The position numbers were made by a program, and so were the translations under genes. Of a DNA stretch of 15,337 bases, positions 1-15,337 are shown one piece after another. The DNA is from a virus (Duplodnaviria; Heunggongvirae; Uroviricota; Caudoviricetes). Below the pieces are notes generated by a model. The model was not told where the DNA came from and did not search any database. It was given only the letters and a program-made list of their open reading frames with translations. The stretch is from positions 1 through 15,337 of the IMG/VR virus record IMGVR_UViG_2534681673_000006, one strand, 5' to 3'. Within the stretch, counting starts at the first letter, position 1, and each line of letters starts with the position of its first letter.

Positions 1-165
1 ATGGCAAAGCCGATCATCACGCTCAATGGCCTAAAAATCGTCATTATGTTGGGAATGCTGGTCATTATTCTCTGCGGTATCCGTTTTGCCGCCGAGATCA
101 TCGTGCCGTTTATTCTCGCATTATTTATTGCTGTTATATATAACTTATCCCGCATAGTGCATTGA
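1..165 (+). pseudogene. tqsA: 5' fragment of tqsA/ydgG-like (AI-2 exporter family) inner-membrane protein gene, interrupted after ~codon 46
   Basis: Translation [46 protein letters not shown] matches, from memory, the TqsA/YdgG N-terminus; then diverges into YNLSRIVH plus stop at 163-165. Identity is recalled, not searched. Confidence 0.4.
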
Positions 166-620
166 TTTAATTAAGCAATTTTCACTGAGAAAGTGCCAAA
201 ATTCGCAAAATGACTACACCAGTGACTACACCGTTCGGTGCACTGTATGAAACAACGTGGAACAAATAGGCACAAGAAATATAAAGGCGGGTAATTTTAA
301 GGAGGCGTTGCTGTCGATATGGGGATCCCCATAACGGGGCTACCGGATTTTTTTTCCGGTTAACCTTTAATCAGCCAGGTGGGTTTTACATACCCTTGAT
401 CACCGTAATGATGATCCAGATGTGCACCTTTTCCACCAATGGAGGAAAAGCTCCAACCGTAACGATGATCGCTATGGTTGCCTCGATGGTCTGCGTGGTC
501 ATTATGACCATTCAGCCAGTGACCTTAATCAGAATTTTTCGCTAAAAAATGACGTTGGCCACGTCATCCGGAAAGCACAAAATCACGTCGATTTTTAATG
601 AACGGTTAAACCGTCTTTTT

Positions 621-655
621 GTCACGGTGTGTCACTGGTTGTCACTCTCCGTCAC
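621..655. repeat. Four GTCAC pentamers at exact 10-bp spacing (starts 621, 631, 641, 651); candidate phased protein-binding array
   Basis: Read directly: gtcacggtgt gtcactggtt gtcactctcc gtcacgattg. Preceded by near-palindrome aacggttaaaccgt (601-614). Confidence 0.5.
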
Positions 656-683
656 GATTGAGGTGGTGCTCATTCTGCCCGAC

Positions 684-915
684 CGCGCATTTTTGCGCTA
701 TCGGGAATATAAAACAGTTACCGCGCCGACTTCCTCAAATTGAGGTTTCCGAAAATATCAACTAGTTAACGATAAACTGGCGAGTAATTAAACTACGAAA
801 ATTTCGTAGTTTGTGAATATATTCCGGCCTGCTGGTTAACAGTCCTCAGATGTGAGGGATGTAGCCAGCGCAATTTTGCGTTATCGGGAATATCAAACAG
901 TTACCGCCGTCAGCT
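684..915. repeat. Two ~40-bp direct repeats (about 686-725 and 869-908, ~37/40 identical), each with a small hairpin; GTTACCGCCGT recurs at 952-962
   Basis: gcgcatttttgcgctatcgggaatataaaacagttaccgc versus gcgcaattttgcgttatcgggaatatcaaacagttaccgc. Non-coding region downstream of the packaging operon. Confidence 0.5.
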
Positions 916-952
916 ACCCAGCTCAGAATTGAGCCGCCTTTTAATCAACAAG

Positions 953-1234
953 TTACCGCCGTAACCGCTCCGGCTTCTTCCAGTGATACGTGATTTTCTC
1001 CTTCTCCCGATACAGTTCAACGCGGCGATTGTAGGCCAGCATTTCCAGAACGCGGATCCGTATGTCGCGCATATCCGCATCATTAAGCTGGATACCATCA
1101 CGGCGCATCACCTCAGCAACAACACGCGCATAATTTTCGGCTGTCACGCTGTCCGGCTGCGTGGTCTGTTCGTCAGCCTGCTGGCTGATTCCAGAGACGC
1201 GGCGGATTAATCGCAGTATTTCGGCTTCTGTCAT
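953..1234 (-). CDS. Hypothetical protein, 93 aa, immediately downstream of TerL
   Basis: ATG at 1234 preceded by GAGG-type SD 8 nt upstream; 13 nt after the terL stop. No recognisable domain. Confidence 0.5.
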   Translation of the reverse strand: MTEAEILRLIRRVSGISQQADEQTTQPDSVTAENYARVVAEVMRRDGIQLNDADMRDIRIRVLEMLAYNRRVELYREKEKITYHWKKPERLRR

Positions 1235-1247
1235 GCTGCTGACCTCA

Positions 1248-2909
1248 TTACACCCCGCTAAATTCTTCCAGTTTCTGGCGGTGGCTGTCGCTTATATCAA
1301 AAGCAAAATCCTCATGCTCTGCCTGGAATGTACCAAACGCCATCAGCGCCGCCACGCTCGGGTCTATCTTGTTCGGTGATTTTTTCTTGTTCGGCTTGAT
1401 ATTGGCGTTCGCGTCACTCTGCATCACGACGTTACTCATCGACCAGGACAACACCGGATCGCCACGATGCACAATCACCCTGCGGTTAACAAAAACTTCG
1501 AACGATTTCGCCGCCGGACTGAATCTGAGGTAGGTTTGCGGGAACGGCTCCACCTCAAAACCAGCCCCCTGTAATTGCGTCCTGAGATGCGTGGCGTTCC
1601 ACGTATCAAAGCCCACCAGCCTGATATTAAATTTCTCCGCATCCTGCATGATGTCATCTCTGATCCGGTCGTAATCAATGCAGTCACCTGGCGTTGTGCG
1701 TATCCAGCCCGCTTTAGCCCACTGGCGATAGACAGCGCGGTTTTTATTGGCGGGGTTCTGTAGCTGGAACTCCGGCAGATAATGACGGGAAACCAGCATG
1801 ATATTTTTACCGACCGGAAAGGCATAGCACACGCTGGAAATATCGCTGGTTGATGATAAGTCCAGCCCCGCGTAACACTCCTGCCCGTGTAAATCTTCCT
1901 CCGTGAACGTTCCGGCACACTCAGCCCATGCGCCGTTACCCATCCACGGGGTAGCCCCCTGGCACCAGATATTAAATCGCTTTGTCATCATCTCCACCCA
2001 TTGCGACGGAATACCCCGCGCTTTCTGGATGGTTGAGGCCAGTTTTTCACGATCCACGGAAACATCGATGTTAGGGTTAGCCTTTATCCACATCGCCGGA
2101 TCATCAACCTCGTTTTCGTCGTCCAGTTCGTAAATCAGTACAAAAATTGAATCGTTGACCTCTTCGCCGTCCAGGATCTGGCAGCAATAATCATAGTGCT
2201 GCTTACAGGCTGAAACGACGTTACTGCCCGATGTGGTAATGGCAAATAACAGCCCTTCGGGACGTGCGCCCATCCCCAGCTCAAGCGCGGAATAAACGCC
2301 GTTATCGGGGTGTAGGTGGTATTCGTCCACGATGGAAAGGCTGGGGTTTGTTCCCTCGATGGTTGCCGCTTTTGCTGCCAGCGGCTTTAACAGGCTGTTG
2401 CTTTTCGGGTGCATCACCTTGTGGGCCTGAATATTCACCCGCCTGCGTAACGGTCGGGATAAAAGGCACATCTGACGCGCATCATCAAAAACGATCCGCG
2501 CCTGGTCACGGCTCACCGCTGCGGTGTAAATATCCTGCTGCCCGTTCTCCATAATCAGAAACCAGTTAGCCAGAATCGCGGCGGTCGTGGATTTCGCATT
2601 TTTGCGCGGCACTTCGATAAAGGCGCTCGTGTATTTGCGCCGTCCGGTGGCCTTAACCTTAAAGCCGAGGATGCACGCAAAGGCGAACTGCTGCCACGGC
2701 TCCAGCTCAATGGGTCTGCCACGCATCGGCCCTTTTACGTGCGGGCACACCCTGGAAAAGGCAATAAACCGCTCCACAACCTCACGATCGAACGTGTAAA
2801 GGGGGCTTTCAAGGTCCGAAAAGTACCGTTTAACGGCCTGTTTCAGCCGTTTACAGGCCGGAATTTTGCCCGTTTTTACGTCTTCTGCGTACTTATTCCA
2901 GGCGGTCAA
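1248..2909 (-). CDS. Terminase large subunit (Terminase_1 / HK97-like TerL)
   Basis: 553-aa ORF with N-terminal ATPase region (EVPRKNAKS Walker A-like, IVDEYH) and C-terminal nuclease region typical of TerL. Apparent TTG start at 2909 with AGGA SD; overlaps terS end by 17 nt. Confidence 0.85.
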   Translation of the reverse strand: MTAWNKYAEDVKTGKIPACKRLKQAVKRYFSDLESPLYTFDREVVERFIAFSRVCPHVKGPMRGRPIELEPWQQFAFACILGFKVKATGRRKYTSAFIEVPRKNAKSTTAAILANWFLIMENGQQDIYTAAVSRDQARIVFDDARQMCLLSRPLRRRVNIQAHKVMHPKSNSLLKPLAAKAATIEGTNPSLSIVDEYHLHPDNGVYSALELGMGARPEGLLFAITTSGSNVVSACKQHYDYCCQILDGEEVNDSIFVLIYELDDENEVDDPAMWIKANPNIDVSVDREKLASTIQKARGIPSQWVEMMTKRFNIWCQGATPWMGNGAWAECAGTFTEEDLHGQECYAGLDLSSTSDISSVCYAFPVGKNIMLVSRHYLPEFQLQNPANKNRAVYRQWAKAGWIRTTPGDCIDYDRIRDDIMQDAEKFNIRLVGFDTWNATHLRTQLQGAGFEVEPFPQTYLRFSPAAKSFEVFVNRRVIVHRGDPVLSWSMSNVVMQSDANANIKPNKKKSPNKIDPSVAALMAFGTFQAEHEDFAFDISDSHRQKLEEFSGV

Positions 2910-3249
2910 GCTCGTCCTCTTCTTCTGTTTCCGGTGGATTTTTACGGCGGCTTATCGGGTCAAAACCGAGCAAGGAGGCCATTTTTATCATCACTCTTTC
3001 AGCGTCGGATTTTGCGCTTAATGCGGGGTTTCTGCTCTCGCCGCCCTGACTGTTAACAATGCTGAACCCGCGCGCCGCAAGGTCTGCAACGGCTTTCCGG
3101 TAAATGGAGTAGTTGACACAATACAGTTCCAGATTGCTCCAGTCGGCGGGGGTCAGGTCTCCCCGTTCCGCAAGCTGCCGCGATTTTTCCCGCCACTGCT
3201 TCACGGCGATATCATCCAGGTAGGCGGGGGCTTTCGGTGGTCTTGCCAT
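2893..3249 (-). CDS. Terminase small subunit, P27 family
   Basis: 118 aa; conserved P27-family TerS pattern (KQWREK...LELYCVNYSIYRKA...NPALSA...LGFDPISRRK) with acidic C-terminus. Sits directly upstream of terL. Confidence 0.75.
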   Translation of the reverse strand: MARPPKAPAYLDDIAVKQWREKSRQLAERGDLTPADWSNLELYCVNYSIYRKAVADLAARGFSIVNSQGGESRNPALSAKSDAERVMIKMASLLGFDPISRRKNPPETEEEDELDRLE

Positions 3250-3538
3250 GCTTATTTTTTCGCCAGATTATTTTTCAAAAAATTCCCGTGCATAAAAATT
3301 TGAGGAGGCGTTCGGTGCCCGGCGGGGTCGGGTTGGTCCTGAAAACGCCCCCCACCCCGTCATACAGCCTCATCAGCGATTGCGGAAACATTCCATAACC
3401 TCGCGGTCACGGTCGGTTAATCGCTTCGCTGTGATGCGTTCTGCGCGTCCTGACGCTTTATCTTTATGCCCTGTTTCCTGTGTCTTCCATGCGTCACGCT
3501 GCCTTATAAGTCCACGGATAAGGCGGTTTTGCTCCCGC
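3250..3538. other. HNH-terS intergenic region; candidate cos site (G-rich quasi-palindrome about 3317-3359)
   Basis: 289-bp non-coding gap at the position where HK97-like cos phages carry cos, between HNH and TerS. Contains gcccggcggggtcgggttgg ... cgccccccaccccg. Positional inference only. Confidence 0.3.
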
Positions 3539-3979
3539 TCATTCATCAGCGTCATACATCCAGTTATTGCGGTTAGCGGCCCGTTCTTCCTCTTCACGAA
3601 ATCCACCTGCGGCACGCTTGCTTTTTGTTGCCGGATCAAGCCATTTCGTTTTCTGGTTATGACACGCCTGGCACAATGGTTGATGGTTCCATTCGGGCCA
3701 GAAGAGAACATCATCACCGCCATTAATCGGGATAATGTGATCCACCACCACGGCGGGCGTATATATCCCCTTCTCAAGGCATCGCACGCATAACGGGTTT
3801 TTACTCAGATACATGGCGCGGTATTTGTCCCACTGTCTGGAATATCCACGCGCGCGGCGGTGTCCTCGTCTGGCATCCTCTGCACGCCATGCCGCCCGCC
3901 TGTGCTCCTCACACTTGCCGGATTTAACGCGCCTGTTACAGCCTGGTTCTGTGCATCGTCTTAATGGTTGCCACGGCAT
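3539..3979 (-). CDS. HNH endonuclease (phage packaging-associated)
   Basis: 146 aa; Cys-rich N-terminus (CTEPGCNRRV...CEEH) and HNH core VVDHIIPINGGDDVLFWPEWNHQPLCQACHNQKT. Adjacent to terS as in HK97-type cos systems. Confidence 0.8.
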   Translation of the reverse strand: MPWQPLRRCTEPGCNRRVKSGKCEEHRRAAWRAEDARRGHRRARGYSRQWDKYRAMYLSKNPLCVRCLEKGIYTPAVVVDHIIPINGGDDVLFWPEWNHQPLCQACHNQKTKWLDPATKSKRAAGGFREEEERAANRNNWMYDADE

Positions 3980-4275
3980 CAGTACACCCCCACATCACGG
4001 TAAGCCGTCCAGAGTGCGCCTATCGTCATGGGTACGCGTGTTTTTGCGTTATCCGCGACAATCTGGCGATTTTCATACAGGTGAGCGATAAACATCATGC
4101 AGCCAATCTTTATGGCTGGCGTGAACTCCAGCCCGTCATCAAAGCGCCTGCCTATGTGTATCTGGCACGCCTCAAGCGATGCGGCAATGTATCCGCTGAT
4201 TAACTGGTCTTCATCGTCGCCATCGATGCGGCAATGGAGTTTCACTTCTTCCAGGGTGATAAGTTCTTCTGTCAT
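3979..4275 (-). CDS. Head-tail connector protein (gp6-like)
   Basis: 98 aa; N-terminus ITLEEVKLHCRIDGDDEDQLISGYIAASLEA is the gp6-like connector signature. Stop overlaps the HNH start (TGATG). Confidence 0.7.
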   Translation of the reverse strand: MTEELITLEEVKLHCRIDGDDEDQLISGYIAASLEACQIHIGRRFDDGLEFTPAIKIGCMMFIAHLYENRQIVADNAKTRVPMTIGALWTAYRDVGVY

Positions 4276-4610
4276 TTTTCCGCGCCCTCACGACAAAGAA
4301 TTTCAAGGCGTGTCCTGGCGGCATCCGGCAGCGGCTGCCCGATGATATTCAGTACACGCCCCGCCAGCGGCCCCGTACTGACCTTTATCCGACTGGTGGC
4401 GTTGATGTCCTTCCGGTACCGTATCCAGATCCTTACGGTACCAATCGCCAGCTCTGCGCCCGATGAAATGGCCTCCTTGCTGCTGATCATGTTCACGCTT
4501 GCCCAGAGTGTGTGACCGTCCTCCCACGTTTCGAGTATTTCGCCCGTCATGGCTCTGGTCTGTTTCAGGGTCTGAATCGTTATCCTGTCACGCAGTCGCC
4601 CTATGTTCAT
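4272..4610 (-). CDS. Head closure / head-tail adaptor protein (SPP1 gp16 / HK97 gp9-like)
   Basis: Start taken at ATG 4610 (MNIGRLRDRITIQ...), which overlaps the portal stop as ATGA. Size and IRYRKDI motif fit head-tail joining proteins. The ORF track's longer start at 4652 lies inside portal. Confidence 0.65.
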   Translation of the reverse strand: MNIGRLRDRITIQTLKQTRAMTGEILETWEDGHTLWASVNMISSKEAISSGAELAIGTVRIWIRYRKDINATSRIKVSTGPLAGRVLNIIGQPLPDAARTRLEILCREGAEK

Positions 4611-5818
4611 TCCGGTTTTTCTCCCTCGCTGATTTTTACTTCCTGTTTCCATGCCTGGCTGAACTCATCACCACCATCACGCGGTGACAGTCCTTCACGT
4701 TCGCGGGCTTCGTTCGGACACATAACGCCGGATTTGATGCCGCGCTCATAGGTGGCAAAGCGTTCGCCAGGTGTGGCCCGTAACAGGTCCGCGCTGTCAA
4801 ACTCCACCTGATACCGGATACCAGGTACAGGCGAGGCCACCAGCAGGGCGTTTTTTATCTGCTGCTCAAAGTTCGCCAGCCACGGGCGCATCGTCATGGT
4901 GAGAAATGCGCGGCTTGCCTCGCTGAAATTGCTGTAGGTGCTGTTGCTGTATTCCTGCAAAAAAATCGGCGAGACGTTGAACATTCGGGCGATGTCTTCA
5001 ATGGTGAAGCGACGGGAGGCCAGCCATTCAGCATCCTGATTACTCATGCCCAGCTGCTGATAGCTCATACCCCCTTCAAGGATGGGCGTTTTTCCGGCGT
5101 TTCTGGCCCCTTTGTAGCGTTCCAGTGCGGCTAATGCCTGTTTGCCCTTCACGCCGTCCAGCCATTCGCCTGACGTGATAACCCCTGCCGCCATCATGCC
5201 ATCACGCATCACGCTCGCGCCGTGGCGTTGTTGGGCCAGCCCAAGCCCCAGCGATTCGCGGCAGATGGTTACAGGTGAGCGCCCCATAAAGCCGTCATCC
5301 GTGGAGTAACGAAGGTGAAGTACTTCCCACGGTAAATAGTTGCGGGTGTTTCCGGTGTAGGCGTCAGTGATGCAGTAGCGCCAGTTGTGTTCGCCTGTCT
5401 GCTCCACGTTCACCGACTGCGGCGGGTAAGGATGTAAAGCCGCCGGAAAACCATCACGCCCCCACTGAATCACCGCATAAGCATTACCGTTTAACAGGCA
5501 GTGGCGGATCATCATTCGCTTAAACTGGTAGGGGGTTTGCCATGCGTTCGGGCGCTCGTTGAGGATGTGATCGACCGGATGAGAATCAAGCCACTCGCGG
5601 GCCTCCTTCCCCTTCTCATTGCGTACCAGGTACAGGTAACACGGCATGGTAGCCACCGCCTCAGAGATGACCGTGACGGCGTTCATGACGGCGGGCAGTG
5701 ATTCCGCTGTCCCCGATGATACGTACTCACCCGCCCCCGTGTTCGATGTGCCAGCCAGCGCCATAAATTCATCAAGCGTCATGCTGCGCTGCTCTTTTTT
5801 TCTTCTGAAAGGCCACAT
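4607..5818 (-). CDS. Portal protein, HK97 family
   Basis: 403 aa; LLNGNAYAVIQW, LHLRYSTDDGFMGRSP, GKTPILEGGMSYQQLGMSNQDAEWLASRRFTIEDIARMFNVSP match the HK97 portal family pattern. Strong GGGGGTG SD. Confidence 0.85.
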   Translation of the reverse strand: MWPFRRKKEQRSMTLDEFMALAGTSNTGAGEYVSSGTAESLPAVMNAVTVISEAVATMPCYLYLVRNEKGKEAREWLDSHPVDHILNERPNAWQTPYQFKRMMIRHCLLNGNAYAVIQWGRDGFPAALHPYPPQSVNVEQTGEHNWRYCITDAYTGNTRNYLPWEVLHLRYSTDDGFMGRSPVTICRESLGLGLAQQRHGASVMRDGMMAAGVITSGEWLDGVKGKQALAALERYKGARNAGKTPILEGGMSYQQLGMSNQDAEWLASRRFTIEDIARMFNVSPIFLQEYSNSTYSNFSEASRAFLTMTMRPWLANFEQQIKNALLVASPVPGIRYQVEFDSADLLRATPGERFATYERGIKSGVMCPNEAREREGLSPRDGGDEFSQAWKQEVKISEGEKPE

Positions 5819-5819
5819 A

Positions 5820-6392
5820 TCACACCCCCGCTAAATCCACCCACCAGCGGCGATTATCCGCACGCGGCATTTTTTCGGGGTGCTGCTCATACAGGGAACG
5901 GCGGGCCAGCTCCACGCCGGAATCAGGGTAAGCCGGAACGGATGTAACGGTAATTTCGTACAGTTCCGCCACCAGCACGGTGCGCACGCATGGATCTGTT
6001 GTGGTATCCCATACATCCTTACGGGAACGAAAGCCAAAGCTCATGCCGGATATATCACCACGTTTAACCAGTTCGATAACGTCGCGCCCTGTGCTGGTAT
6101 CCGGTGGGGTCAGTTCAAAGCGTAACCCTGTTTCGTCCTCTTCCAGTTTCAGCGTGCCGGAACGGGTACGCCCCAGTAACATGCTGTGGTCATGCTCATA
6201 CAGGCCGCGAACGTCATTACCCGCTGCAAGCCATTCAGTAAACGCTCCCCGCTGGAATTTTTCGTAAAACTCACCCCATAACAGTTCTGAAAGCTTATCC
6301 CAGCGAACAACGTAGCCCGTCAGCGTACCGGCTCCGCTGGTGGTGATTTCCGATGACCGGATTTCCATACTCTTCATAATTTTTTCACCCAT
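5820..6392 (-). CDS. Prohead protease, HK97 family (peptidase S78/U35)
   Basis: 190 aa; LTGYVVRWDK...GAFTEWL...LYEHDHSMLLGRT...ISGMSFGF...TSVPAYPDSG fits the HK97 prohead protease pattern. Start ambiguous: ATG 6392 or ATG 6377 (the latter has a GGGTG SD). Confidence 0.8.
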   Translation of the reverse strand: MGEKIMKSMEIRSSEITTSGAGTLTGYVVRWDKLSELLWGEFYEKFQRGAFTEWLAAGNDVRGLYEHDHSMLLGRTRSGTLKLEEDETGLRFELTPPDTSTGRDVIELVKRGDISGMSFGFRSRKDVWDTTTDPCVRTVLVAELYEITVTSVPAYPDSGVELARRSLYEQHPEKMPRADNRRWWVDLAGV

Positions 6393-6402
6393 AAAACACT
6401 AA

Positions 6403-6420
6403 AGGGGCTTTTAAGCCCCT
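6403..6420 (-). promoter_or_regulatory. Hairpin between capsid and protease genes; candidate partial terminator or mRNA stabiliser
   Basis: aggggctt/aagcccct inverted repeat in the 39-bp capsid-protease gap, followed on the minus strand by uaguguuuu. Read from sequence. Confidence 0.35.
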
Positions 6421-6431
6421 TCTGTATGCTG

Positions 6432-7870: not shown

Positions 7871-7875
7871 GTTGA

Positions 7876-8148: not shown

Positions 8149-8158
8149 CGTCACCCCC

Positions 8159-8569
8159 TCAGAACGGAATATCATCACCGTAAGGGTCATCGCCTCCCGC
8201 TGGTGGCTGATTACCCTGTGTGCCTGTGGCTTTGCGTCTGTTCCCGCCAGGACGTGCCGCGCGGGCACTGATTACGCTGTCCGCAATAACCTGATACCCC
8301 TGCCGTGTTTCCCCGTTCTGTCCGGTCCACTGGCTTACCTGCATCGTGCCGGATACGCTGGCAACATCGCCTTTTTGATGTTTAGCCAGGAAATCGGCCT
8401 GTTTGCCAAATGCGATAACCGATAACCATAACGTCGCCTGTCCGTCATGTGCCTGGCTGCATGGCAACGATACCGCCATACGCGCCAGAGTCATCGGTGT
8501 GCCCTTGCTGCTCTGTTTTACCAGCGGGTCGTCCACCAGCCGCCCGTAAGCTGCAATTTGTGCTGTCAT
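8159..8569 (-). CDS. ssb: Single-stranded DNA-binding protein
   Basis: 136 aa; N-terminal OB-fold pattern (IAAYGRLVDDP...WLSVIAFGKQADFLAKHQKGD...VSQWTGQNGETRQGYQVIADSV), Gly/Pro-rich linker and the canonical acidic tail DDIPF. GAGGTGG SD. Confidence 0.85.
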   Translation of the reverse strand: MTAQIAAYGRLVDDPLVKQSSKGTPMTLARMAVSLPCSQAHDGQATLWLSVIAFGKQADFLAKHQKGDVASVSGTMQVSQWTGQNGETRQGYQVIADSVISARAARPGGNRRKATGTQGNQPPAGGDDPYGDDIPF

Positions 8570-8578
8570 ATTGCCACC

Positions 8579-8884
8579 TCAGTGAAGCGATCCGGCGTTG
8601 TTCTTTTTCATCTCTTCCATCATTTTTTCAGTGAGCATTACGCACTGAAAACCCATGCTTTTGATGTCTACGGGTTTCATGCCTTTGTCTGTGGATATCA
8701 CAGGCAGAATATCCTGATACACATCGCGGTCAGGGTAACTAAGCACACAAAGCGCCCATGATGCCACGGGTGAGGATCCTTCGTCTGTTTCAACCCACCA
8801 GCCTGGTGTAGCTGCGCTTATTTGCAGAATCGTGATCCGTCCGTTGTGCTTGTAAAATTTTTCACCAAATTTTGGTTCGCTCAT
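8579..8884 (-). CDS. Hypothetical protein, 101 aa
   Basis: ATGA overlap with the upstream gene and strong GGAGAGGTGG SD. No recognisable domain. Confidence 0.55.
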   Translation of the reverse strand: MSEPKFGEKFYKHNGRITILQISAATPGWWVETDEGSSPVASWALCVLSYPDRDVYQDILPVISTDKGMKPVDIKSMGFQCVMLTEKMMEEMKKNNAGSLH

Positions 8885-9132
8885 GATTCCACCTCTCCGG
8901 TTTTAACGTTGATTGTTGTTACCTGTTCCGCTTCGGCAATCTCCCGTTCTGTCAGCGTGGCAAAGTTTGCCGCCGCTGTGGTCATGAATGCGCTTATCAG
9001 TTCGGGATGCTCCTTCGCGTATCCTTCCCCCGCGTGGCGGTCTATCGTTCTGATTGCCACCTTTAAAGCGTGCTCTGTCATGTCTAACGCTTTATATTTT
9101 GGCTGTGTTCTGTCTCTGCGTTTTTGTGTCAT
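8881..9132 (-). CDS. Hypothetical protein, ~83 aa (start uncertain)
   Basis: Start taken at ATG 9132 (GGGGAG just upstream) because the longer ORF to 9327 would run through the iteron array. ATGA-coupled to the downstream gene. Confidence 0.4.
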   Translation of the reverse strand: MTQKRRDRTQPKYKALDMTEHALKVAIRTIDRHAGEGYAKEHPELISAFMTTAAANFATLTEREIAEAEQVTTINVKTGEVES

Positions 9133-9145
9133 CTCCCCACCTATA

Positions 9146-9335
9146 CCCACTTTTACCCCCCACTTTTCACAATTCCCCATCTCGTTAAAGGCGTGGGATT
9201 TGTAATTTTTATCATGCTGTTTCATAAGGATTTTTTTGCTCCCCACTTTTTGGGATGTATACAGGTCAAAAAGTGGGGGATTGTGTTTAAATTTTGTTAA
9301 ATTCCCCATACCCACCACTTTTGCCACCCACTTTT
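9146..9335. repeat. Iteron array (CCCACTTTT, at least 6 copies, both orientations); candidate replication origin
   Basis: Copies at 9146, 9159, 9242, 9269 (inverted), 9314 and 9327, including a perfect IR ccccacttttt-17 nt-aaaaagtgggg. AT-rich spacers. Directly downstream of the replication ATPase stop (9335). Confidence 0.55.
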
Positions 9336-10318
9336 TACAGTGGCCCTACATCATCGCCGTCAACATAGATAACGCCGTCTTTTTCCAGCTTGCCCAGCCA
9401 GCGCCGGAAGTGCTTTATTTCGTACCCCAGTTTTTTCATGTCATCACGTAACAGCGGGATCGTGCACTTGTCGCCGTTCTGTGTGCGTGAACGGATACAC
9501 CCCCATAGCGCGGTATGGTTTTCCGTCTTGTTGCCTGCCTCTTCGATGCGCTCCAGTTCAACGGGAGGGCGCGGCTTATCCACCACCACCAGCGACGAGA
9601 TTAACTCCCCGTCAGCGTCGGTAAAAAGCTCCACCACCCGCAAATCATAGGCAGCCTCTTTGAGTTCCTCCGCGTCCTTCATTTTGGTGCATGAGATAAC
9701 CAGCGCTTCGCTTCCTGCGTCCTCCCTGCGTATCCGGTATTCAGCATCCAGCGAAGCACGAAATGCACTGGAACCGCGCGCGCCTTTCGTCTCATCCTTG
9801 CCGGAATGGTGAACCACCAGCACCGTGGCCCCTGTGCGTCGTTTCAGTTCGTCACAACCACGGATAAACGCCCCCATATCACGGGAATCATTTTCATCAT
9901 TCCCACCAAAGCAACGCGCCAGCGTATCCAGAATAATCATGCGTACAGGTTTACCCGTTTCCCGCTCCACCTGACGGGCAGCGATAACCATTTCATCAAC
10001 ATCAAGCGGGGCAGCCGGAAAGATGGGGCGGTTTACCAGATACAGATTTTTCACCTGCTCATCGTGCACAACCTCCCAGGCTTTTACACGACGCGGAACA
10101 CCTATACCGCCTTCACCAACCACATAGAGAACCGCACCATGTGCAACCCTGCGGCCTCCCCACTGGCGACCAGTGGCAACATGGCACGCCCACGATCCGG
10201 CAAGGAATGATTTATAGGACCCGCTAGCCCCGTATATGCTGCATAGCGATACCGCCGGAATAATCCCCTTAACCACGTAATCCAGTTGCGTGTCATATCC
10301 GGTAGATCCAACGCTCAT
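9335..10318 (-). CDS. Replication ATPase, AAA_25 / RepA-like (RecA-fold helicase or loader) with C-terminal winged-helix-like domain
   Basis: 327 aa; Walker A GASGSYKS, Walker B MIILDT, VVHHSGKDETKGARGSSAF motif typical of AAA_25 proteins. ATGA overlap with upstream gene. Confidence 0.75.
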   Translation of the reverse strand: MSVGSTGYDTQLDYVVKGIIPAVSLCSIYGASGSYKSFLAGSWACHVATGRQWGGRRVAHGAVLYVVGEGGIGVPRRVKAWEVVHDEQVKNLYLVNRPIFPAAPLDVDEMVIAARQVERETGKPVRMIILDTLARCFGGNDENDSRDMGAFIRGCDELKRRTGATVLVVHHSGKDETKGARGSSAFRASLDAEYRIRREDAGSEALVISCTKMKDAEELKEAAYDLRVVELFTDADGELISSLVVVDKPRPPVELERIEEAGNKTENHTALWGCIRSRTQNGDKCTIPLLRDDMKKLGYEIKHFRRWLGKLEKDGVIYVDGDDVGPL

Positions 10319-10734
10319 CGGTAGCGTGGTTTTTCGCTGGTGGTTTTTTCTTCCGCCGGCTCTTTCCCGCGCACCCGTTCCAGGTATTCGCGCCAGTTCT
10401 CCCGCATATGGCTGTGCATCCCTTCGGGGTAATAATTCGCATCAGTTACACCCGCCGCCGCCAGCTTGTGCGCAATGGCATTAATATTTGATGGCCTGAT
10501 GTGGCCTGCCTTGTACAGCCGGACACAATAGCGCCCCTCGTCGATGATTCTCAGGTCTGCCAGTTCATCCAGTTGATCATCAGCCAGCACAACGGGAGGC
10601 ACATTATCGCCAGCCAGTCGCCCGTCCTGTTCCTGCCACTGTTTCGCATGTGCCCAGGCATCACTACCCGCAAAAATAATGACTTCGGTCATCTTGTCGT
10701 AAGGCTGTTTTTTTAAGTTCGGTGCGCTTTTCAT
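10315..10734 (-). CDS. Hypothetical protein, 139 aa, translationally coupled to the replication ATPase
   Basis: ATGA overlaps at both ends. No recognisable domain; position suggests a replication accessory role. Confidence 0.5.
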   Translation of the reverse strand: MKSAPNLKKQPYDKMTEVIIFAGSDAWAHAKQWQEQDGRLAGDNVPPVVLADDQLDELADLRIIDEGRYCVRLYKAGHIRPSNINAIAHKLAAAGVTDANYYPEGMHSHMRENWREYLERVRGKEPAEEKTTSEKPRYR

Positions 10735-11030
10735 TTCTTGCCCCTGAATCCGTTAATCATGGTTTTCAGCTTCTGGATGTTTGCCCGTGCCCTGGCGTTG
10801 CTGGTGGGCACGTTATGCGGCGCGGTCTGTACCAGAGAAAAATCACGCCGGAACTGATAAACAGGCATCACGCAATCATATTCGTAACCTTCACGGCGGT
10901 AAGTTACGCACCGTCCCGCCACGCCCTTAATCATTACCGTGCCGCCGTACTGGTCGCGGTAAATATCACCGCGCGTAAATTTAGGGTGAGTGTTGCCACT
11001 GGCAGTTAAGCCAGAATATTTAAGTTTCAT
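10731..11030 (-). CDS. Hypothetical protein, 99 aa
   Basis: GGAGA SD 9 nt upstream of ATG 11030; ATGA-coupled downstream. No recognisable domain. Confidence 0.5.
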   Translation of the reverse strand: MKLKYSGLTASGNTHPKFTRGDIYRDQYGGTVMIKGVAGRCVTYRREGYEYDCVMPVYQFRRDFSLVQTAPHNVPTSNARARANIQKLKTMINGFRGKK

Positions 11031-11035
11031 TATTT

Positions 11036-11269
11036 TTATTCTCCGGTGTGCTGTTCGCTATATCTGTCGTGCAATGTCTCTATTTCTTGTAGTTCCATTA
11101 TTACAGGCTCAAGAAGCGTTATTAATGCCGTGACAATTCTTGATTTTTGTTTGTCGCGTTCATTGTCGCCAAGTGTTTCAAGCCATATGCGCAATATTTC
11201 CAGCATGTTTTCACTGTGAGAAAGTGCAAGAAATACGCGTTCTGTTGTTTCGTGGTAAATATCACGCAT
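11036..11269 (-). CDS. Hypothetical protein, 77 aa
   Basis: GAGGA SD; start overlaps the upstream stop by 8 nt. No recognisable domain. Confidence 0.5.
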   Translation of the reverse strand: MRDIYHETTERVFLALSHSENMLEILRIWLETLGDNERDKQKSRIVTALITLLEPVIMELQEIETLHDRYSEQHTGE

Positions 11270-11495
11270 GGCTTACATCCTCAGGAAATTTTCTTCTGTA
11301 ACGCGCCTCTGCCACATATTCCGCATAATCGGCGGCGATATTCAGTACATCAAGCCCCGTTGATTTATATTCTCTCGTGGAAAGTAAGAAAAAAGCCGCT
11401 CTAATAAGTTCTGGCATTGACGAAAGCGCATCAGCCGCATCATCAGGAACGCCGGAAAATTCTTGTTTCAGGGAATTAAAACGATCATCACGCAT
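11262..11495 (-). CDS. Hypothetical protein, ~77 aa
   Basis: Start taken at ATG 11495 (GGGGGG SD), overlapping the upstream stop by 8 nt. No recognisable domain. Confidence 0.45.
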   Translation of the reverse strand: MRDDRFNSLKQEFSGVPDDAADALSSMPELIRAAFFLLSTREYKSTGLDVLNIAADYAEYVAEARYRRKFPEDVSHA

Positions 11496-11928
11496 AACCC
11501 CCCCCATTTTCACAATCAGCAACAAGAATATTTTTAGCGTCATTCAGCGACCGCGTTGCGGTGTATCGGATACATTCCAGGGCGAATAGTGTGTATTCTT
11601 CCCTTTCTTCCTTTTGTGCAAGCTCTGCTGTGCATTCAATATCAATAAGCGCGTGCATCAGCGTAGTGAGTGCGGCGGCGGCTGCGTCCGGTGTGGTTTT
11701 ATTGCACATGTACCCCTCCGCATTTTTTTCGTTAGAAATAAGCGTTCTTCTTTCCTGTTCATCGATCAGGAATACGCAGACCTCACCGCTAAGGCGTTTA
11801 AGTAAGCCGATGATTGCCCCTGATTCGCTGTCGGTCATCATGCCTGGGTAATCCTCTGCCAGTGCGCAAATAACTTCGATTTGGTGGGCGCGTTCTGCTG
11901 CCTGTTGTAGTGTGATTTCCTGGCTCAT
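11488..11928 (-). CDS. Hypothetical protein, 146 aa
   Basis: GGGGGT SD; ATGA overlap with upstream gene. No recognisable domain. Confidence 0.5.
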   Translation of the reverse strand: MSQEITLQQAAERAHQIEVICALAEDYPGMMTDSESGAIIGLLKRLSGEVCVFLIDEQERRTLISNEKNAEGYMCNKTTPDAAAAALTTLMHALIDIECTAELAQKEEREEYTLFALECIRYTATRSLNDAKNILVADCENGGGYA

Positions 11929-12125
11929 AAGCCTACCCCCTGACGAATACGGGCGGCGAATACCATCACGCAGCCAGCCGGGGATTGCTGGCGTGCGTTC
12001 TGTTCGCTAGTGGCCTCGATGGTAATCACGCGCGGTTGTGCCGTGCTCAGGGCGATAAAACGCCAGGTGAATTTATTCAGGTTGTGCAAGTCCCGCCCTT
12101 GCGGGTGTGTGGTATGATTTCTCAT
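11925..12125 (-). CDS. Small protein, 66 aa, first gene of the leftward early operon; possibly Icd-like (tentative)
   Basis: Start at ATG 12125 with GAGGT SD. HPQGR and FAAR motifs resemble, from memory, P4-type Icd-like proteins. Downstream of the divergent operator region. Confidence 0.4.
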   Translation of the reverse strand: MRNHTTHPQGRDLHNLNKFTWRFIALSTAQPRVITIEATSEQNARQQSPAGCVMVFAARIRQGVGL

Positions 12126-12152
12126 AGCTACCTCGATACTGTTGCTATCGTT

Positions 12153-12197
12153 GGTGGTTAGACGCCCTGCATGTGTTGCGAGCACTGCGGGGCGTTG
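12153..12197. repeat. Conserved ~45-bp stem-loop element, copy A; copy B at 12943-12992
   Basis: ggttagacgccc(t/c)g(c/t)atgtgtt...cactgcggggcgttg; about 85% identical. Both copies can form a 10-bp stem with one mismatch; loops differ. Confidence 0.5.
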
Positions 12198-12223
12198 CTT
12201 AATTTGAGTGACAAAACTCAAAC

Positions 12224-12279
12224 TGTGCGCACAGATTAAAATCATATGTGCGCACAGATTAAAATCATATGTGCGCACA
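12224..12279. promoter_or_regulatory. Operator array: three copies of perfect palindrome TGTGCGCACA in 23-bp tandem repeats, in the divergent promoter region
   Basis: Palindromes at 12224-12233, 12247-12256, 12270-12279; repeat unit tgtgcgcacagattaaaatcata. A partial half-site tgtgcgcc sits at 12317-12324 near a candidate TTAACA-17-TATTGT promoter for the RHH gene. Confidence 0.55.
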
Positions 12280-12353
12280 TGTCAATACTTAACATCTCAT
12301 TTTTTTTGCTGTATTGTGTGCGCCCATAAAGTCCATTTAAGTGAGGTGCATCA

Positions 12354-12551
12354 ATGTCTAGCGGTAACACAAACAACAAATCAGCAAAGAAAAATATTCG
12401 ATTCCCACATGAGCTTATAGATGGGATTGATGCCAGCGTTGAACAAGAAAAATTAACTAATCCTAGTGCTAATTTTTCCGCATGGGTCTTAGATGCCTGT
12501 GGACGCAAATTAAAATATGAACAGCGCCGGAAGGCCAAAGAATCAGAATAA
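12354..12551 (+). CDS. Ribbon-helix-helix (CopG/Arc-like) DNA-binding protein, cassette 1
   Basis: 65 aa; GAGGTG SD 5 nt upstream. KNIRFPHELIDGIDASVEQEK...SANFSAWVLDACGRKL fits an RHH strand-helix-helix. Paralogous to the 13113-13292 protein. Confidence 0.65.
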   Translation: MSSGNTNNKSAKKNIRFPHELIDGIDASVEQEKLTNPSANFSAWVLDACGRKLKYEQRRKAKESE

Positions 12552-12600
12552 TCACTATCAGCGCCGTGGTGTGAGGTACTACGGCGCATTGCTTTACAGG
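12527..12600 (+). repeat. ~74-bp near-identical junction element (second copy 13268-13341) spanning the RHH gene 3' end and a hairpin
   Basis: aaggccaaagaatcagaataat(c/t)actatcagcgccgtgg(t/c)gtgaggtactacggcgcattgctttacagg. Stem gcgccgtgg/ctacggcgc with a GAGG-containing loop. Confidence 0.55.
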
Positions 12601-12608
12601 GCAGTAAC

Positions 12609-12836
12609 ATGACCAACAACACACTATCACCAATACAAGACACGCAAACGCAAGATGATGAAATCATCCGGCAAAGGCAGTCAGAAGCCTGCGCCAGACT
12701 TGAGGAAGAACTAACCAGAACAAAAATACCACCACCAGCGCCGCGCTTAGTTCCACCAGAAAAATTTGCCCTTGAAGATTTTGTCGATAAATACCCACGG
12801 CGGCTTAAATCCGGCAAAAACCGACCGCCAGGATGA
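12609..12836 (+). CDS. Small partner protein, cassette 1, 75 aa, unknown function
   Basis: Starts MTN; C-terminal motif FALEDFVDKYPRR is shared with the cassette-2 partner (FVLDEFLKKYSR). Proline-rich middle. No known domain. Confidence 0.5.
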   Translation: MTNNTLSPIQDTQTQDDEIIRQRQSEACARLEEELTRTKIPPPAPRLVPPEKFALEDFVDKYPRRLKSGKNRPPG

Positions 12837-12999
12837 GTGCACAAAACCGAACTATGAAACGGATTATTCCGTTTCCGGGGCGTTTGTGTGTGTATAAAGA
12901 GTAAGCTATGCTCTTTTATAGCCATAATCGTTACCTCAATTAATGGTTTGGTTAGACGCCCCGTATGTGTTCCCATCACTGCGGGGCGTTGTTGTTTTG

Positions 13000-13092
13000 G
13001 GTGTATTTCACCTTTATTTTTAAATCTACATTCAGGTGAAATACACCGCAAGACTTTTTTTATCTTTTTTTTTGCGTATACTGAAATACACC
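13000..13092. promoter_or_regulatory. Operator/promoter of cassette 2: perfect 13-bp inverted repeat ggtgtatttcacc / ggtgaaatacacc plus a third half-site overlapping a TATACT -10
   Basis: Arms at 13000-13012 and 13035-13047 (22-bp spacer); tgaaatacacc at 13082-13092 directly after TATACT (13077-13082). AGGAG SD follows. Confidence 0.55.
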
Positions 13093-13112
13093 GATTATCA
13101 GGAGAACCAGAA

Positions 13113-13292
13113 ATGGCAACAGGTGCAAAGAACGCAAAATCACAAATGACAACGGTCAGAATCCCGCATGAGGTAATGACCGATATTGAGCAACTTAAAG
13201 AACCTGGCGAAAGTACCGCCGGATTTCTAGTTACGGCAGCAAAAGGCGAGATCAAACGCCGCCAGCGCCGCAAGGCCAAAGAATCAGAATAA
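13113..13292 (+). CDS. Ribbon-helix-helix DNA-binding protein, cassette 2
   Basis: 59 aa from ATG 13113 (AGGAG SD). TTVRIPHEVMTDIEQLK...TAGFLVTAAKGEIKRRQ is paralogous to cassette 1 with divergent DNA. Shared C-terminus RRKAKESE. Confidence 0.65.
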   Translation: MATGAKNAKSQMTTVRIPHEVMTDIEQLKEPGESTAGFLVTAAKGEIKRRQRRKAKESE

Positions 13293-13349
13293 TTACTATC
13301 AGCGCCGTGGCGTGAGGTACTACGGCGCATTGCTTTACAGGTACACACA

Positions 13350-13553
13350 ATGACCAATAAAGAATCAACCAATACACCATCGCAAAAAACGAACAGAGAG
13401 CACGAAAATATGGCGCTCGAGCATGAATCAGAAAGATTCGCTCCATGCGCTTTTGTCCTTGATGAGTTTCTAAAAAAATATTCACGTTCTGAACGGATGA
13501 AAATGGCAGCACAATACGGCCCCAACAAGCAAGGTAATTGCCCACCAGCCTGA
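13350..13553 (+). CDS. Small partner protein, cassette 2, 67 aa, unknown function
   Basis: Starts MTN; same position relative to the junction hairpin as the 12609 gene; shares the F.L(E/D)(D/E)F..KY.R motif. Confidence 0.5.
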   Translation: MTNKESTNTPSQKTNREHENMALEHESERFAPCAFVLDEFLKKYSRSERMKMAAQYGPNKQGNCPPA

Positions 13554-13621
13554 TCACGGTTATCATGTTCGGGCTTATGATTGTTGACACATACGGCGCA
13601 GCGGGTTAATTGTTCAGAAAG

Positions 13622-13649
13622 GCGGTTCCATATCGGGACCGCTTTTTTT
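13622..13649 (+). terminator. Rho-independent terminator of the plus-strand RHH operon
   Basis: Stem gcggttcc/gggaccgc (8 bp, one G.U), loop atatc, followed by TTTTTTT. Confidence 0.6.
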
Positions 13650-13765
13650 ATGCCTGAAAATACCCTATAGCATGGCTTTTCAGATTCACCAGGGCGAACG
13701 AATCCCCGCCCCTGTACGGGCGTATATTTCATCATGGTTATACCTCAGTATTATGGCGTTTATTC

Positions 13766-13789
13766 CCGATACCGAGATCCCGGTATCGG
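13766..13789. promoter_or_regulatory. Perfect 9-bp inverted repeat ccgataccg-agatcc-cggtatcgg downstream of alpA
   Basis: Read from sequence. No U-tract on either strand, so more likely a protein site or an mRNA 3' stabiliser than a terminator. Confidence 0.35.
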
Positions 13790-13829
13790 TCAATAATGGA
13801 TTGGTGGTGGCTGTGTGCCGCCAGTCTTT

Positions 13830-14018
13830 TTAGTGAACTGCCTTGCAGCTATCCTTCCAGGCCAAAACCTCAGATAAAGACCAGCCAACAGAACGCCCGC
13901 CAAGTTTACGACGTGATGGGAATTGTCCGGCCTTTTCCAGGCGGTAGCGGCATGAGCGGCTAAGGCCTGTTAGCTTTTCGCATTCTTTTTCACGTATAAA
14001 CCGATCAGTGCTTAACAC
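13830..14018 (-). CDS. alpA: AlpA-family transcriptional regulator / excisionase-like HTH protein
   Basis: 62 aa; RFIREKECEKLTGLSRSCRYRLEKAGQFPSRRKLGGRSVGWSLSEVLAWK matches the AlpA/Xis-type HTH pattern. Apparent GTG start with GGGGG SD. Adjacent to integrase. Confidence 0.75.
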   Translation of the reverse strand: MLSTDRFIREKECEKLTGLSRSCRYRLEKAGQFPSRRKLGGRSVGWSLSEVLAWKDSCKAVH

Positions 14019-14179
14019 TATTGCCCCCTTTCGTTTCTTAAAGAGTTATTTCGTGTTCTATTGCGTTGGGATGTGTCTGATTGTGTCAGGATGATTCAGA
14101 GTTGGCAAATGTTGGTGTCGCATGGTTTACAGAAAGAGGAATAATCAGGATAAAATCATTTAAATTCATGTTAATACAA

Positions 14180-14209
14180 AGGCATAAAATCTTGTTTTAT
14201 GCCTTTTTT
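14180..14209. terminator. Rho-independent terminator between int and alpA, possibly bidirectional
   Basis: Stem ggcataaaa/ttttatgcc (9 bp perfect), loop tcttg. TTTTTT follows on the plus strand; the interrupted run UUUGUAUU follows on the minus strand. Confidence 0.55.
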
Positions 14210-14308
14210 CGCACGCTTTAACGCGTAATTCACTAATGTATAAAAAACCAGCTGAGCATTAAAAATCAGTAACTTACAAATCTGTATTCTTTTTGGCCTC
14301 TTGTTCGT

Positions 14309-14375
14309 GATTGTGTCACGTTGTTGCACATTGTTTCACGTTGTATCTGTGCACTTATCCAGTATGCGCATACTG
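14309..14375. promoter_or_regulatory. Four 10-bp phased repeats (consensus nnCACGTTGT) followed by perfect 16-bp palindrome CAGTATGCGCATACTG
   Basis: tcgtgattgt gtcacgttgt tgcacattgt ttcacgttgt at 14309-14352; palindrome at 14360-14375. The 10-mer gattgtgtca recurs at 14079-14088 in the alpA promoter-proximal region. Confidence 0.5.
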
Positions 14376-14392
14376 AAAAAACACGAAAAAAA

Positions 14393-15337
14393 TTATTTTA
14401 TTCTGGTTACTGGTAGCGTGGTTACGTTTTCATGTGTTCCCGCCAGTATCTCCAACCGCTCCACCCACATATCAAGCGCATTGCGTTTCGCATCAATATA
14501 GCGGGAATGGTTGTACACGCGTTGCATTCCTGGCATCTGGTGGCCTGTAAGCTGCTCCACGACGTGAGGATCAACGCCTAAATCGTTCAGCATGGTTGTA
14601 AAGGTGCGCCGGATGTCATGCAATGACCATTGAGGGTGTTTTAGCCTCCTGTGCGCTAATCTGCCGTACTGCGATACGCTAGCCTCCTGTTTCACTTCCC
14701 CCAGTAATAAGCCCGTGTGCCTGTTCTGGTCCACCAGCCGCGTGACGAACGGCAGGATCGCTTCCGGTATGGGCCGGAATATTGCAACCTTCGTTTTGCT
14801 GTGCTCCTTCGGAACGGTCCATAGCATTTCGGTAAAATCCCACTCGCTGATCTCCGATAACCTCAGTTCTACCGTCCTGGCTCCGAAGACAATCAGGAGG
14901 CGGATTAACGCGACGTAGTAAGGAGAAAATATTTTTTTATCCAGCGCCTGCAATAACTCGCCCAGTTCTTTGGTGCTTAAGACACGTTCGCTTATATCCG
15001 GTTTTTTCCCAACGTCCGCCACGTTCAGATCATCGAGAACGTTGCTGATTGCAAAGCGCCGCCTCCGGCAGAACTTAAGCGCCTGCTTGCATGTCTGTAG
15101 CACGAATCCGGCAGTAACAGGTGTTCGCTTTGCCACCTGGTCAAAACAGGCCAGCCAGTGCCGTAGCTCGCATTTATCCAGCGGCATAGCGCCAATGTAC
15201 TGTATTACGTGATTATTAAGTCGCCTTTTCAGGGCGATATAATCCACGCGGTTTTCCTTTACGTACGACTCAAGCCAGTAGGTGAGCGCATCGCCAACCG
15301 TTACCGGCTTTAACGCTTCCTGTACGGCGTAATTCAT
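14393..15337 (-). CDS. int: Tyrosine site-specific integrase (phage integrase family)
   Basis: 314 aa; core-binding-like N-terminus and catalytic C-terminus with R...HDIRRTF...GHQMPGMQRVYNHSRY (R-H-R-Y signature). ATG sits at the last three bases of the window, so any N-terminal extension cannot be assessed. Confidence 0.85.
   Translation of the reverse strand: MNYAVQEALKPVTVGDALTYWLESYVKENRVDYIALKRRLNNHVIQYIGAMPLDKCELRHWLACFDQVAKRTPVTAGFVLQTCKQALKFCRRRRFAISNVLDDLNVADVGKKPDISERVLSTKELGELLQALDKKIFSPYYVALIRLLIVFGARTVELRLSEISEWDFTEMLWTVPKEHSKTKVAIFRPIPEAILPFVTRLVDQNRHTGLLLGEVKQEASVSQYGRLAHRRLKHPQWSLHDIRRTFTTMLNDLGVDPHVVEQLTGHQMPGMQRVYNHSRYIDAKRNALDMWVERLEILAGTHENVTTLPVTRIK

Follow-up and report, generated by a model that had tools for sequence, protein, structure and literature searches.

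Phage-inducible chromosomal islands of the capsid-forming kind (cf-PICIs) were described as a class, together with their prototype EcCIEDL933 from Escherichia coli O157:H7, in a 2022 preprint by Alqurainy et al. EcCIEDL933 is 15.4 kb long and carries int, alpA and rep along with the genes for capsid, protease, portal, connectors, HNH endonuclease and the small (TerS) and large (TerL) terminase subunits, while tail genes are absent (Alqurainy et al. 2022). Experiments showed that its small capsids are self-made, that it packages no DNA but its own and that tails are all it requires from its helper phage (HK106); in proteobacterial cf-PICIs the genes for capsid, protease, portal and connectors come first, followed by hnh, terS and terL (Alqurainy et al. 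2022). The EcCIEDL933 capsid has been solved as PDB entry 9GYI, a T=4 particle of 47.5 nm with a cleaved N-terminal domain and an SxGxxAD motif (He et al. 2025 preprint). Here, we analysed a stretch of 15,337 nucleotides (the window) deposited as the Caudoviricetes record IMGVR_UViG_2534681673_000006, which very probably represents nearly all of an approximately 15.66-kb E. coli cf-PICI of the EcCIEDL933 lineage, inserted inside tqsA.

The class, the mechanism and even the capsid structure of this element have already been published, and the element adds one more mosaic member, at an att site (tqsA) that is shared with other PICIs. The experimental evidence for helper-dependent behaviour comes from EcCIEDL933 and a small number of other islands. 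Elements of this kind are nonetheless worth identifying correctly: cf-PICIs are abundant in Enterobacteriaceae (13% of genomes according to SatelliteFinder), they carry genes between species by docking tail-less capsids onto the tails of different phages, and recognising one corrects the usual annotation as a cryptic prophage and also predicts the type of tail required, in this case HK106-like.

Gene content and order of the island

The cf-PICI model of SatelliteFinder comprises 11 core components and treats tails and holins as forbidden. All 11 components are present in the window with strong profile matches, and none of the forbidden ones was found. Specifically, an integrase gene lies at one end, with a specific att site (the core TGCTGTTAT at both tqsA junctions) and an AlpA-type regulator beside it; the element has its own replicase and origin, though the replicase gene is split; and it encodes its own capsid protein, protease and portal, its own connectors, and its own HNH endonuclease, TerS and TerL. 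The order capsid, protease, portal, connectors, hnh, terS, terL is the one published for proteobacterial cf-PICIs, and the 15,660 bp between the att cores fit the size of a cf-PICI with a small T=4 capsid. Nothing was found against membership of the class, and the doubts concern whether this particular copy works.

A sequence-only reading of the same DNA had described a satellite that forms its own capsid, packages its own DNA and borrows tails from a helper. The genes it had named (HK97-type capsid, protease, portal, head closure, connector, HNH, TerS, TerL, int, alpA and single-stranded DNA-binding protein, SSB) were all recovered on the minus strand, with profile E-values between 2e-8 and 3e-90, and the profile searches it had proposed matched every one of the head proteins. 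Its central proposal likewise finds support, as it agrees with the EcCIEDL933 experiments and with the 96–100% identity of the head and packaging proteins to those of an O157:H7 island. Nearly all real genes lie on the minus strand, the exception being four small plus-strand genes between an Icd-like gene and alpA.

The head genes form a compact minus-strand block. The major capsid protein (6432–7589; Phage_capsid PF05065, 2e-61) is 385 aa long and of the HK97 fold, has a delta domain at its N terminus and carries the cleavage-region motif STGVPAD; 383 of its 385 residues are identical to PDB 9GYI. An alternative GTG start at 7637 was rejected, as the ATG at 7589 gives the 385 aa of 9GYI. Next come the S78 prohead serine protease (5820–6392; Peptidase_S78 PF04586, 7e-48), the portal protein (4607–5818; PF04860, 2.5e-90), the head closure protein Hc1 (4272–4610; Phage_HCP PF05521, 9e-23; phrog_25) and the head-tail connector/adaptor Ad1 (3979–4275; Phage_connect_1 PF05135, 5.6e-12; phrog_40).

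The packaging genes follow on the same strand. They comprise the HNH endonuclease, a packaging cofactor (3539–3979; PF01844, 1.8e-8), a 60-aa protein (3373–3555; phrog_3173, 7.5e-37) that is 100% identical to the O157 copy, a TerS of the P27/Terminase_4 family (2893–3249; PF05119, 1.3e-23), TerL (1248–2909; TerL_ATPase PF03354, 1e-25; TerL_nuclease PF20441, 2e-50) and, as the last gene of the packaging operon, a conserved 93-aa protein of unknown function (953–1234; phrog_1561, 1.5e-55), which is 100% identical in three related islands (L001, L002 and L003 among the loci that we collected). By its position, the 60-aa protein would correspond to EcCIEDL933 gene '1792', a numbering that we infer; mutation of '1792' severely reduced transfer of the prototype.

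HK97-type phages have the layout hnh-cos-terS. On the basis of this layout, a G+C-rich sequence situated between terS and the 60-aa gene (3290–3370, minus strand; ACGGGGTGGGGGGCG...CCCGACCCCGCCGGGC, read directly from the sequence) is likely to be the cos site. For one cf-PICI, KpCIDSM30104, cohesive ends have been reported.

The capsid also bears on whether the block could be a head module domesticated by the host, which would package random host DNA in the manner of a gene transfer agent (GTA). The solved structures closest to the capsid protein, 9GYI apart, are indeed those of the Rhodobacter GTA capsids 6TB9 and 6TBA (E about 3e-46). The present element, however, is mobile in its own right across strains and att sites, it has an integrase, att sites, a replicon, TerS and HNH genes and a putative cos, and its prototype packages only its own DNA, so that we regard a GTA-like origin as extremely improbable.

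The replication functions also lie on the minus strand. Directly downstream of rep, a putative origin at 9145–9335 contains a cluster of six iterons, AAAAGTGGG(G/T), in both orientations, in a region that is intergenic in annotated relatives. When the motif CCCCACTTTT (AAAAGTGGGG on the other strand) was searched with at most one mismatch, seven copies were found in the window, six of them within 9145–9335, against 1.3 expected, and 0 of 200 shuffles reached seven. The iterons proposed from the letters alone are therefore real as a cluster and exceed the shuffle expectation. The SSB gene lies at 8159–8569 (PF00436, 7e-16).

Relatedness to EcCIEDL933, classical PICIs and P4

The 11 core genes of EcCIEDL933 all occur in the element, in unchanged order, and the two islands are of similar length (15.66 kb here, 15.4–15.5 kb there). 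An iteron-type origin occupies the same position in both, and PerC and SSB genes are common to both. For DNA and protein comparisons, we used the island of O157:H7 strain F6321 (L002) as a proxy for the EDL933-type island. Over the head and packaging module, the two elements are 98.5% identical at the DNA level, and nine head and packaging proteins show 96–100% identity: TerS, the 60-aa and the 93-aa proteins are identical, TerL, portal, HNH and the major capsid protein exceed 99%, and connector, closure protein and protease range between 96 and 98%.

Outside this module, the similarity decreases. The replication block is 92.6% identical to that of the O157 island, and the int-alpA DNA only 86%. 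EcCIEDL933 sits between phoQ and roxA, whereas the element described here interrupts tqsA. In addition, it carries two putative ribbon-helix-helix (RHH) regulator cassettes, compared to one in EcCIEDL933, with different operator-like sequences, it contains about 250 extra bp at 700–950 relative to the O157 island, and both rep and int are frameshifted in this copy.

The left half of the element has its counterparts elsewhere. Classical Gram-negative PICIs of the EcCICFT073 type, including one at tqsA (L016), share with it attB, the junction and the int-alpA-regulatory-rep-SSB arrangement, as well as a YlcI-type cassette and a DUF4222 gene, and the identical split-rep allele occurs among them. 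They differ in the other half: classical PICIs rely on helper capsids; their genes include one for capsid remodelling similar to lambda gpE, an HDPD decoration-like gene and one for a TerS of the Nu1 type, and portal, protease, connectors, HNH and TerL are missing from them, as is an array of ACAA repeats upstream of a capsid operon. The SatelliteFinder model for classical PICIs forbids portal, connector, adaptor and TerL; the element encodes portal, connector, closure protein and TerL, and it falls outside that class.

A further known system, P4, resembles the element in being integrative and helper-dependent, and in having a P4-type integrase (Arm-DNA-bind_3), a regulator of the AlpA/Vis family and an Icd-like gene. 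P4, unlike the present island, has no capsid, portal or terminase of its own, but resizes P2 capsids and uses the P2 terminase. Family scans of the element for P4 Sid, Psu, Delta and alpha-primase found none of them.

Boundaries, flanks and absence of tail and lysis genes

The first 138 nucleotides of the window (plus strand) belong to the 5' part of tqsA, the gene for an autoinducer-2 (AI-2) transporter, and thus to the chromosomal flank outside the element; in relatives with identical sequence, tqsA is truncated at this point. The att core TGCTGTTAT occupies 130–138 and is found again at the other junction, some 15.66 kb distant, where tqsA continues with its 3' part, as seen by comparing both junctions in a related locus (L001) and in the source contig. 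The source contig (L008) is AEZK02000026.1 of assembly GCA_000215145.2, which is 100% identical to the window over 315–15337. The element had been assigned the span 139–15337: the left end at 139 is correct, but the window breaks off exactly at the start codon (ATG) of an int fragment of 314 aa, and the right end actually lies at about 15797, some 460 bp past the window.

A match to the window was found in 5424 of 5426 complete E. coli genomes and is attributed to the tqsA flank at 1–138; at least 80% of the window is present in only 47. The 54-aa tqsA junction peptide occurs in 627 collection blocks, and the site is occupied by both cf-PICIs and classical PICIs. No tRNA or tmRNA was found in the window by ARAGORN, hence the element is not a tRNA-site island.

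The flanks were inspected for tail and lysis genes, the discovery of which would turn the island into part of a complete prophage. In the source contig, the remainder of int and a 60-aa ORF are followed on the right by tqsA-3', pntB, pntA and ydgH; on the left, relatives with an identical left junction carry ydgV, mdtJI, ydgD, asr and ynfM. Only core chromosomal genes were therefore seen outside the element, in the source contig over some 5.4 kb to the right, and in relatives at the same site over 10–12 kb on each side.

Within the element, searches of the remaining open reading frames (ORFs) against Pfam, PHROGs, NCBIfam or PADLOC detected no tail, baseplate, holin, endolysin or spanin family. 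No protein reached a mean Kyte-Doolittle value of 1.6 over 19 residues, the level at which transmembrane-like segments were scored; since all hydrophobic windows stay below 1.6, a small unrecognised holin is unlikely. Family scans and hydropathy thus bear out the claim that tail, baseplate, holin and endolysin genes are absent. Among ten proteins of unknown function, PADLOC and NCBIfam revealed no defence system; their sole match, Cas8g on the 67-aa protein, is at chance level and was dismissed. An Rfam search at E≤1 returned one weak sub-threshold match, BSnc120, at 14161–14242 (27 bits against a gathering score of 114).

Comparison with HK97-like phages

Like HK97 and HK97-like siphoviruses (HK106, HK022), the element combines a capsid of the HK97 fold, whose delta domain is cleaved, with an S78 protease, a portal and connectors of the gp6/gp7 type, and it shares with them a cos packaging that depends on HNH. 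In contrast to these phages, the element has no tail, lysis or immunity genes, its morphogenetic genes precede hnh-terS-terL, and the capsid would be T=4, as reported for the prototype, rather than T=7. Only four phage records share DNA with the element, with at most 13% coverage and less than 80% identity. One record, LR881103.1 ('Escherichia phage vB_KppS-Ant', 16.5 kb, labelled an induced prophage), has terS and terL sequences 78% identical to those of the element, and probably represents another cf-PICI that was deposited as a phage.

These likenesses raise the question of whether the locus is what deletions of the tail, lysis and immunity modules have left of an HK97-like prophage. An intact prophage of that type is not present, the tail, tape-measure and lysis modules being absent from both the element and the fetched flanks. 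The head and packaging genes are certainly of HK97-type phage ancestry, and a related 15-kb island of O157:H7 was once annotated as a defective prophage. Yet a remnant would hardly be expected in such a form: several att sites harbour the same compact layout with its ORFs intact, as the 47 complete genomes and 627 collection blocks mentioned above also attest, and the left half is a PICI int-alpA-rep module and not a phage immunity and replication module. Phage homologues of the head closure protein are all less than 60% identical (54.5% at best), which, together with the little DNA shared with phage records, speaks against a remnant of such a phage. Moreover, the prototype EcCIEDL933 is experimentally a functional satellite. 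We therefore consider a prophage remnant very unlikely, and retain the assignment to the cf-PICIs.

Predicted cycle of the island

The 96–100% protein identity to the O157:H7 island suggests that helper induction via alpA, island-made capsids and helper-tail-dependent transfer would apply here as well; induction, capsid size, cos position and tail source are, for this element, predictions of the analysis. In such a cycle, a helper phage would switch on alpA, and AlpA would drive excision together with Int as well as expression of the long leftward operon. Replication of the circle from the iteron origin would then fall to SSB and the RepA-type helicase, while a small T=4 head would be built by the HK97-fold capsid protein, portal and S78 protease that the island encodes. 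HNH, TerS and TerL would cut the island cos and fill the head with one island genome, after which the connector and the head closure protein would finish a tail-less particle, infectious only once docked on the tail of a helper siphovirus. Because the connector and the closure protein are 96–98% identical to those of EcCIEDL933, tails of the HK106 type are predicted. Cell lysis would be left to the helper as well.

Frameshifts in rep and int

Two findings weigh against the idea that the copy in hand is a working island, and both are losses of a single A. The first affects the RepA-type replicase/helicase gene (9335–10734, minus strand), which had been read as a replication ATPase. The ATPase match is indeed present, but not as a single intact gene: a 139-aa N-terminal ORF (10315–10734) is followed by a 327-aa AAA_25 ORF (9335–10318; PF13481, 1e-43), and the two cover positions 1–125 and 136–465 of phrog_2850, respectively. 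In relatives, RepA is a single protein of 465–469 aa. The split is caused by A6 instead of A7 at 10315–10336, the A-run itself lying at about 10330–10336, and falls exactly at the linker between the N-terminal and the helicase domain.

The second affects the tyrosine integrase, of which the window holds only the catalytic part (14393–15337, minus strand; 314 aa; PF00589 Phage_integrase, 1e-16). In the source contig (L008, 5126–6342), an A5 to A4 change located some 200 bp past the right edge of the window, at the equivalent of about 15540, separates a 91-aa arm-binding part from the 314-aa catalytic part. Across an alignment of about 1,240 nt, this is the sole difference in int from two related islands (L001 and L003).

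This copy may accordingly be crippled by the one-base A-run deletions in rep and int, and the two frameshifts could defeat the test proposed in the sequence-only reading, i.e. induction followed by quantitative PCR (qPCR) of the circular form. The assignment to the cf-PICIs would then be right, but the island would be decaying and immobile. In favour of real mutations, the int change is reproduced by an independent read-set assembly, the frameshifted fragment being recorded only in GCA_000215145.2 and in one Logan assembly (SRR066811), and A7 is present in L004, which comes from a complete genome and is the closest such rep sequence inspected. Across the stretch of the rep split, identity stayed below 99% in all complete E. 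coli genomes. On the other hand, both changes are single-base A-run losses in a 2011 draft, a typical signature of homopolymer errors, and the remaining genes are all intact and 96–100% identical to those of functional relatives. The identical rep A6 allele was found in at least 24 other contigs, including classical PICIs, a PICI inside a prophage terminase gene and another cf-PICI. In addition, the new rep stop overlaps an in-frame ATG (ATGA), at which re-initiation is possible, and a two-piece replicase may still work. On balance, we hold a disabled copy to be a real possibility, though a rather doubtful one, and the class assignment of the island does not depend on it.

One of the contigs with the same rep allele (L007, 5176–16846) shows the PICI inside the large-terminase (gpA) gene of a prophage, where it separates the ATPase from the nuclease part, an arrangement that matches the published 'helper-embedded PICI' configuration.

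AlpA and phased ACAA arrays

The AlpA regulator, the helper-responsive activator in Gram-negative PICIs, is encoded at 13830–14018 on the minus strand (PF05930, 5e-18). AlpA activates its own promoter and the PICI genes, and is sufficient for excision (2018 paper).

ACAA repeats phased at 10 bp were found in only three places of the window, with no match in 200 shuffles: five repeats between int and alpA (14301–14344, minus strand), an array upstream of the capsid operon (7806–7829, plus strand) and an array in the att arm (252–275, plus strand). In relatives, a fourth array lies at the int-side att arm (27611–27644 in L001), while no such array was found in the flanking chromosome of the loci scanned. 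The array upstream of the capsid operon was observed in five of the six cf-PICIs checked (L001, L002, L003, L008 and L013; not detected in L010), and was not detected in the classical PICIs L006 and L016.

Taken together, the positions of the arrays suggest that they may be AlpA sites, and the array preceding the capsid operon is a candidate site for an AlpA-dependent late promoter. The arrays thus offer a concrete candidate for the way in which AlpA could link excision to activation of the capsid operon.

The att arm itself (211–275, plus strand) is composed of two (A/G)TGACTACACC repeats at 211–233 followed by the phased ACAA array, and both motifs recur beside int at the other arm. Near either end of the element (211–233 in the window, and the equivalent of about 15646–15668 in the source contig), the tandem (A/G)TGACTACACC repeats are oriented alike, and they are likely arm-type sites of the integrase.

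The divergent regulatory region

The long leftward operon begins with a gene for an Icd-like protein (11925–12122, minus strand; NF033153, 2e-19; phrog_6196), near which Rfam detected no antisense RNA of the C4/CI type. Upstream of it, operator-like repeats span 12224–12327, with three copies of TGTGCGCACA at a 23-bp period and one more, incomplete copy that lies at the -10 element of the rightward promoter. This promoter region is followed on the plus strand by two cassettes in tandem. Cassette 1 (12354–12836; PF13132, phrog_949) encodes a putative RHH protein of the YlcI/YnfO type (DUF3950; 12354–12551) and a 75-aa partner (12609–12836). Cassette 2 (12999–13553) has three putative operators of its own, GGTG-N5-CACC (12999–13092), a second putative RHH protein of the YlcI/YnfO type (13113–13292) and a 67-aa partner (13350–13553). 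A 497-aa ORF on the minus strand (12242–13735), called in the source annotation, is spurious, as four plus-strand genes with family matches lie beneath it.

The assignment to the RHH (Arc/MetJ/CopG) DNA-binding proteins, for which a strand-helix-helix fold and repeated operators would be expected, was assessed by structure prediction and profile comparison. An AlphaFold2 model of a YlcI/YnfO-type protein, built from a 40-sequence alignment, reached a pLDDT (predicted local distance difference test) of 85, and hhalign against Arc gave P = 7e-4. Foldseek returned no match, and in a search of the PDB with the profile of the RHH alignment Arc ranked first with a non-significant E of 1.4. A model derived from an alignment of only two RHH paralogues was poor (pLDDT 64) and was set aside.

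By comparing the cassette loci (12224–13553 in the window; L001, 24185–25486; L002, 18540–19069; L003, 15205–16449) and the other loci collected, we observed five variants of the YlcI/YnfO protein, each with its own triple motif of the GGTG-N5-CACC type, namely TGTGCGCACA, GGTGAAATACACC, GGTGCATCGCACC, GGTGTCAGCCAC or GGTGTTGAACACC. Each variant sits behind a T-run and a -10 element, and all five element-borne variants share the C-terminus RQRRKAKE; the cassette partner is a small, acidic protein. From this covariation of protein and operator, we infer that the YlcI/YnfO-type proteins of the divergent promoter region may be regulators that differ in specificity and control their own expression.

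The variable region downstream of alpA was called 'of unknown function' in the 2025 preprint, and the 2018 paper left open the question of a repressor in Gram-negative PICIs. Our literature search found no functional studies of DUF3950, YnfO, YlcI or a PICI ribbon-helix-helix protein. As a tentative proposal, in which we place limited confidence, the DUF3950 protein encoded divergently from the icd-rep-packaging operon would be an RHH binder whose variable N-terminal strand co-varies with its three operators (at least five types), forming a swappable 'immunity' module that is present here in two tandem copies, while AlpA would act via the ACAA arrays and couple excision to late activation, like Vis of P4. 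The regulatory part of the island could matter in this respect, since the variable region has the look of exchangeable modules, each pairing an RHH regulator with its operators; these observations are leads only.

A 43-nt hairpin-forming segment in the leader of the icd-like operon (12155–12197) is duplicated, with 88% identity, at 12949–12991 upstream of cassette 2. This duplication suggests that cassette 2 arrived by recombination with the regulatory region of another island.

Accessory genes and minor features

Several further genes lie on the minus strand. Between SSB and the capsid operon, an accessory gene (7876–8148; PF06069, 7e-44) encodes a transcriptional activator of the PerC family and is 88% identical to the copy of the O157 island. 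PerC alleles are known on E. coli PICIs, and some of them activate the LEE (locus of enterocyte effacement) pathogenicity island. Two conserved small proteins of unknown function, of 101 and 81 aa, are encoded at 8579–9126 (phrog_27268 and phrog_1231), and the region upstream of rep (10731–11928) encodes a DUF4222 protein (10731–11030; PF13973) together with three small proteins that belong to PHROG families of unknown function.

Strong terminator-like hairpins were noted on the minus strand directly after the capsid gene (6401–6422) and after the PerC gene (7853–7870). The hairpin at 6401–6422 may set the ratio of capsid to protease expression.

At the opposite end of the packaging operon, the region 139–953 contains no annotated genes. 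A 40-nt direct repeat is found here at 685–724 and 868–907 (93% identical), with a third, partial copy at 944–975, and these repeats bracket the approximately 250 bp that are absent from the O157 island. Within this extra segment, at about 791–813, lies a perfect 23-nt palindrome, AAACTACGAAAATTTCGTAGTTT.

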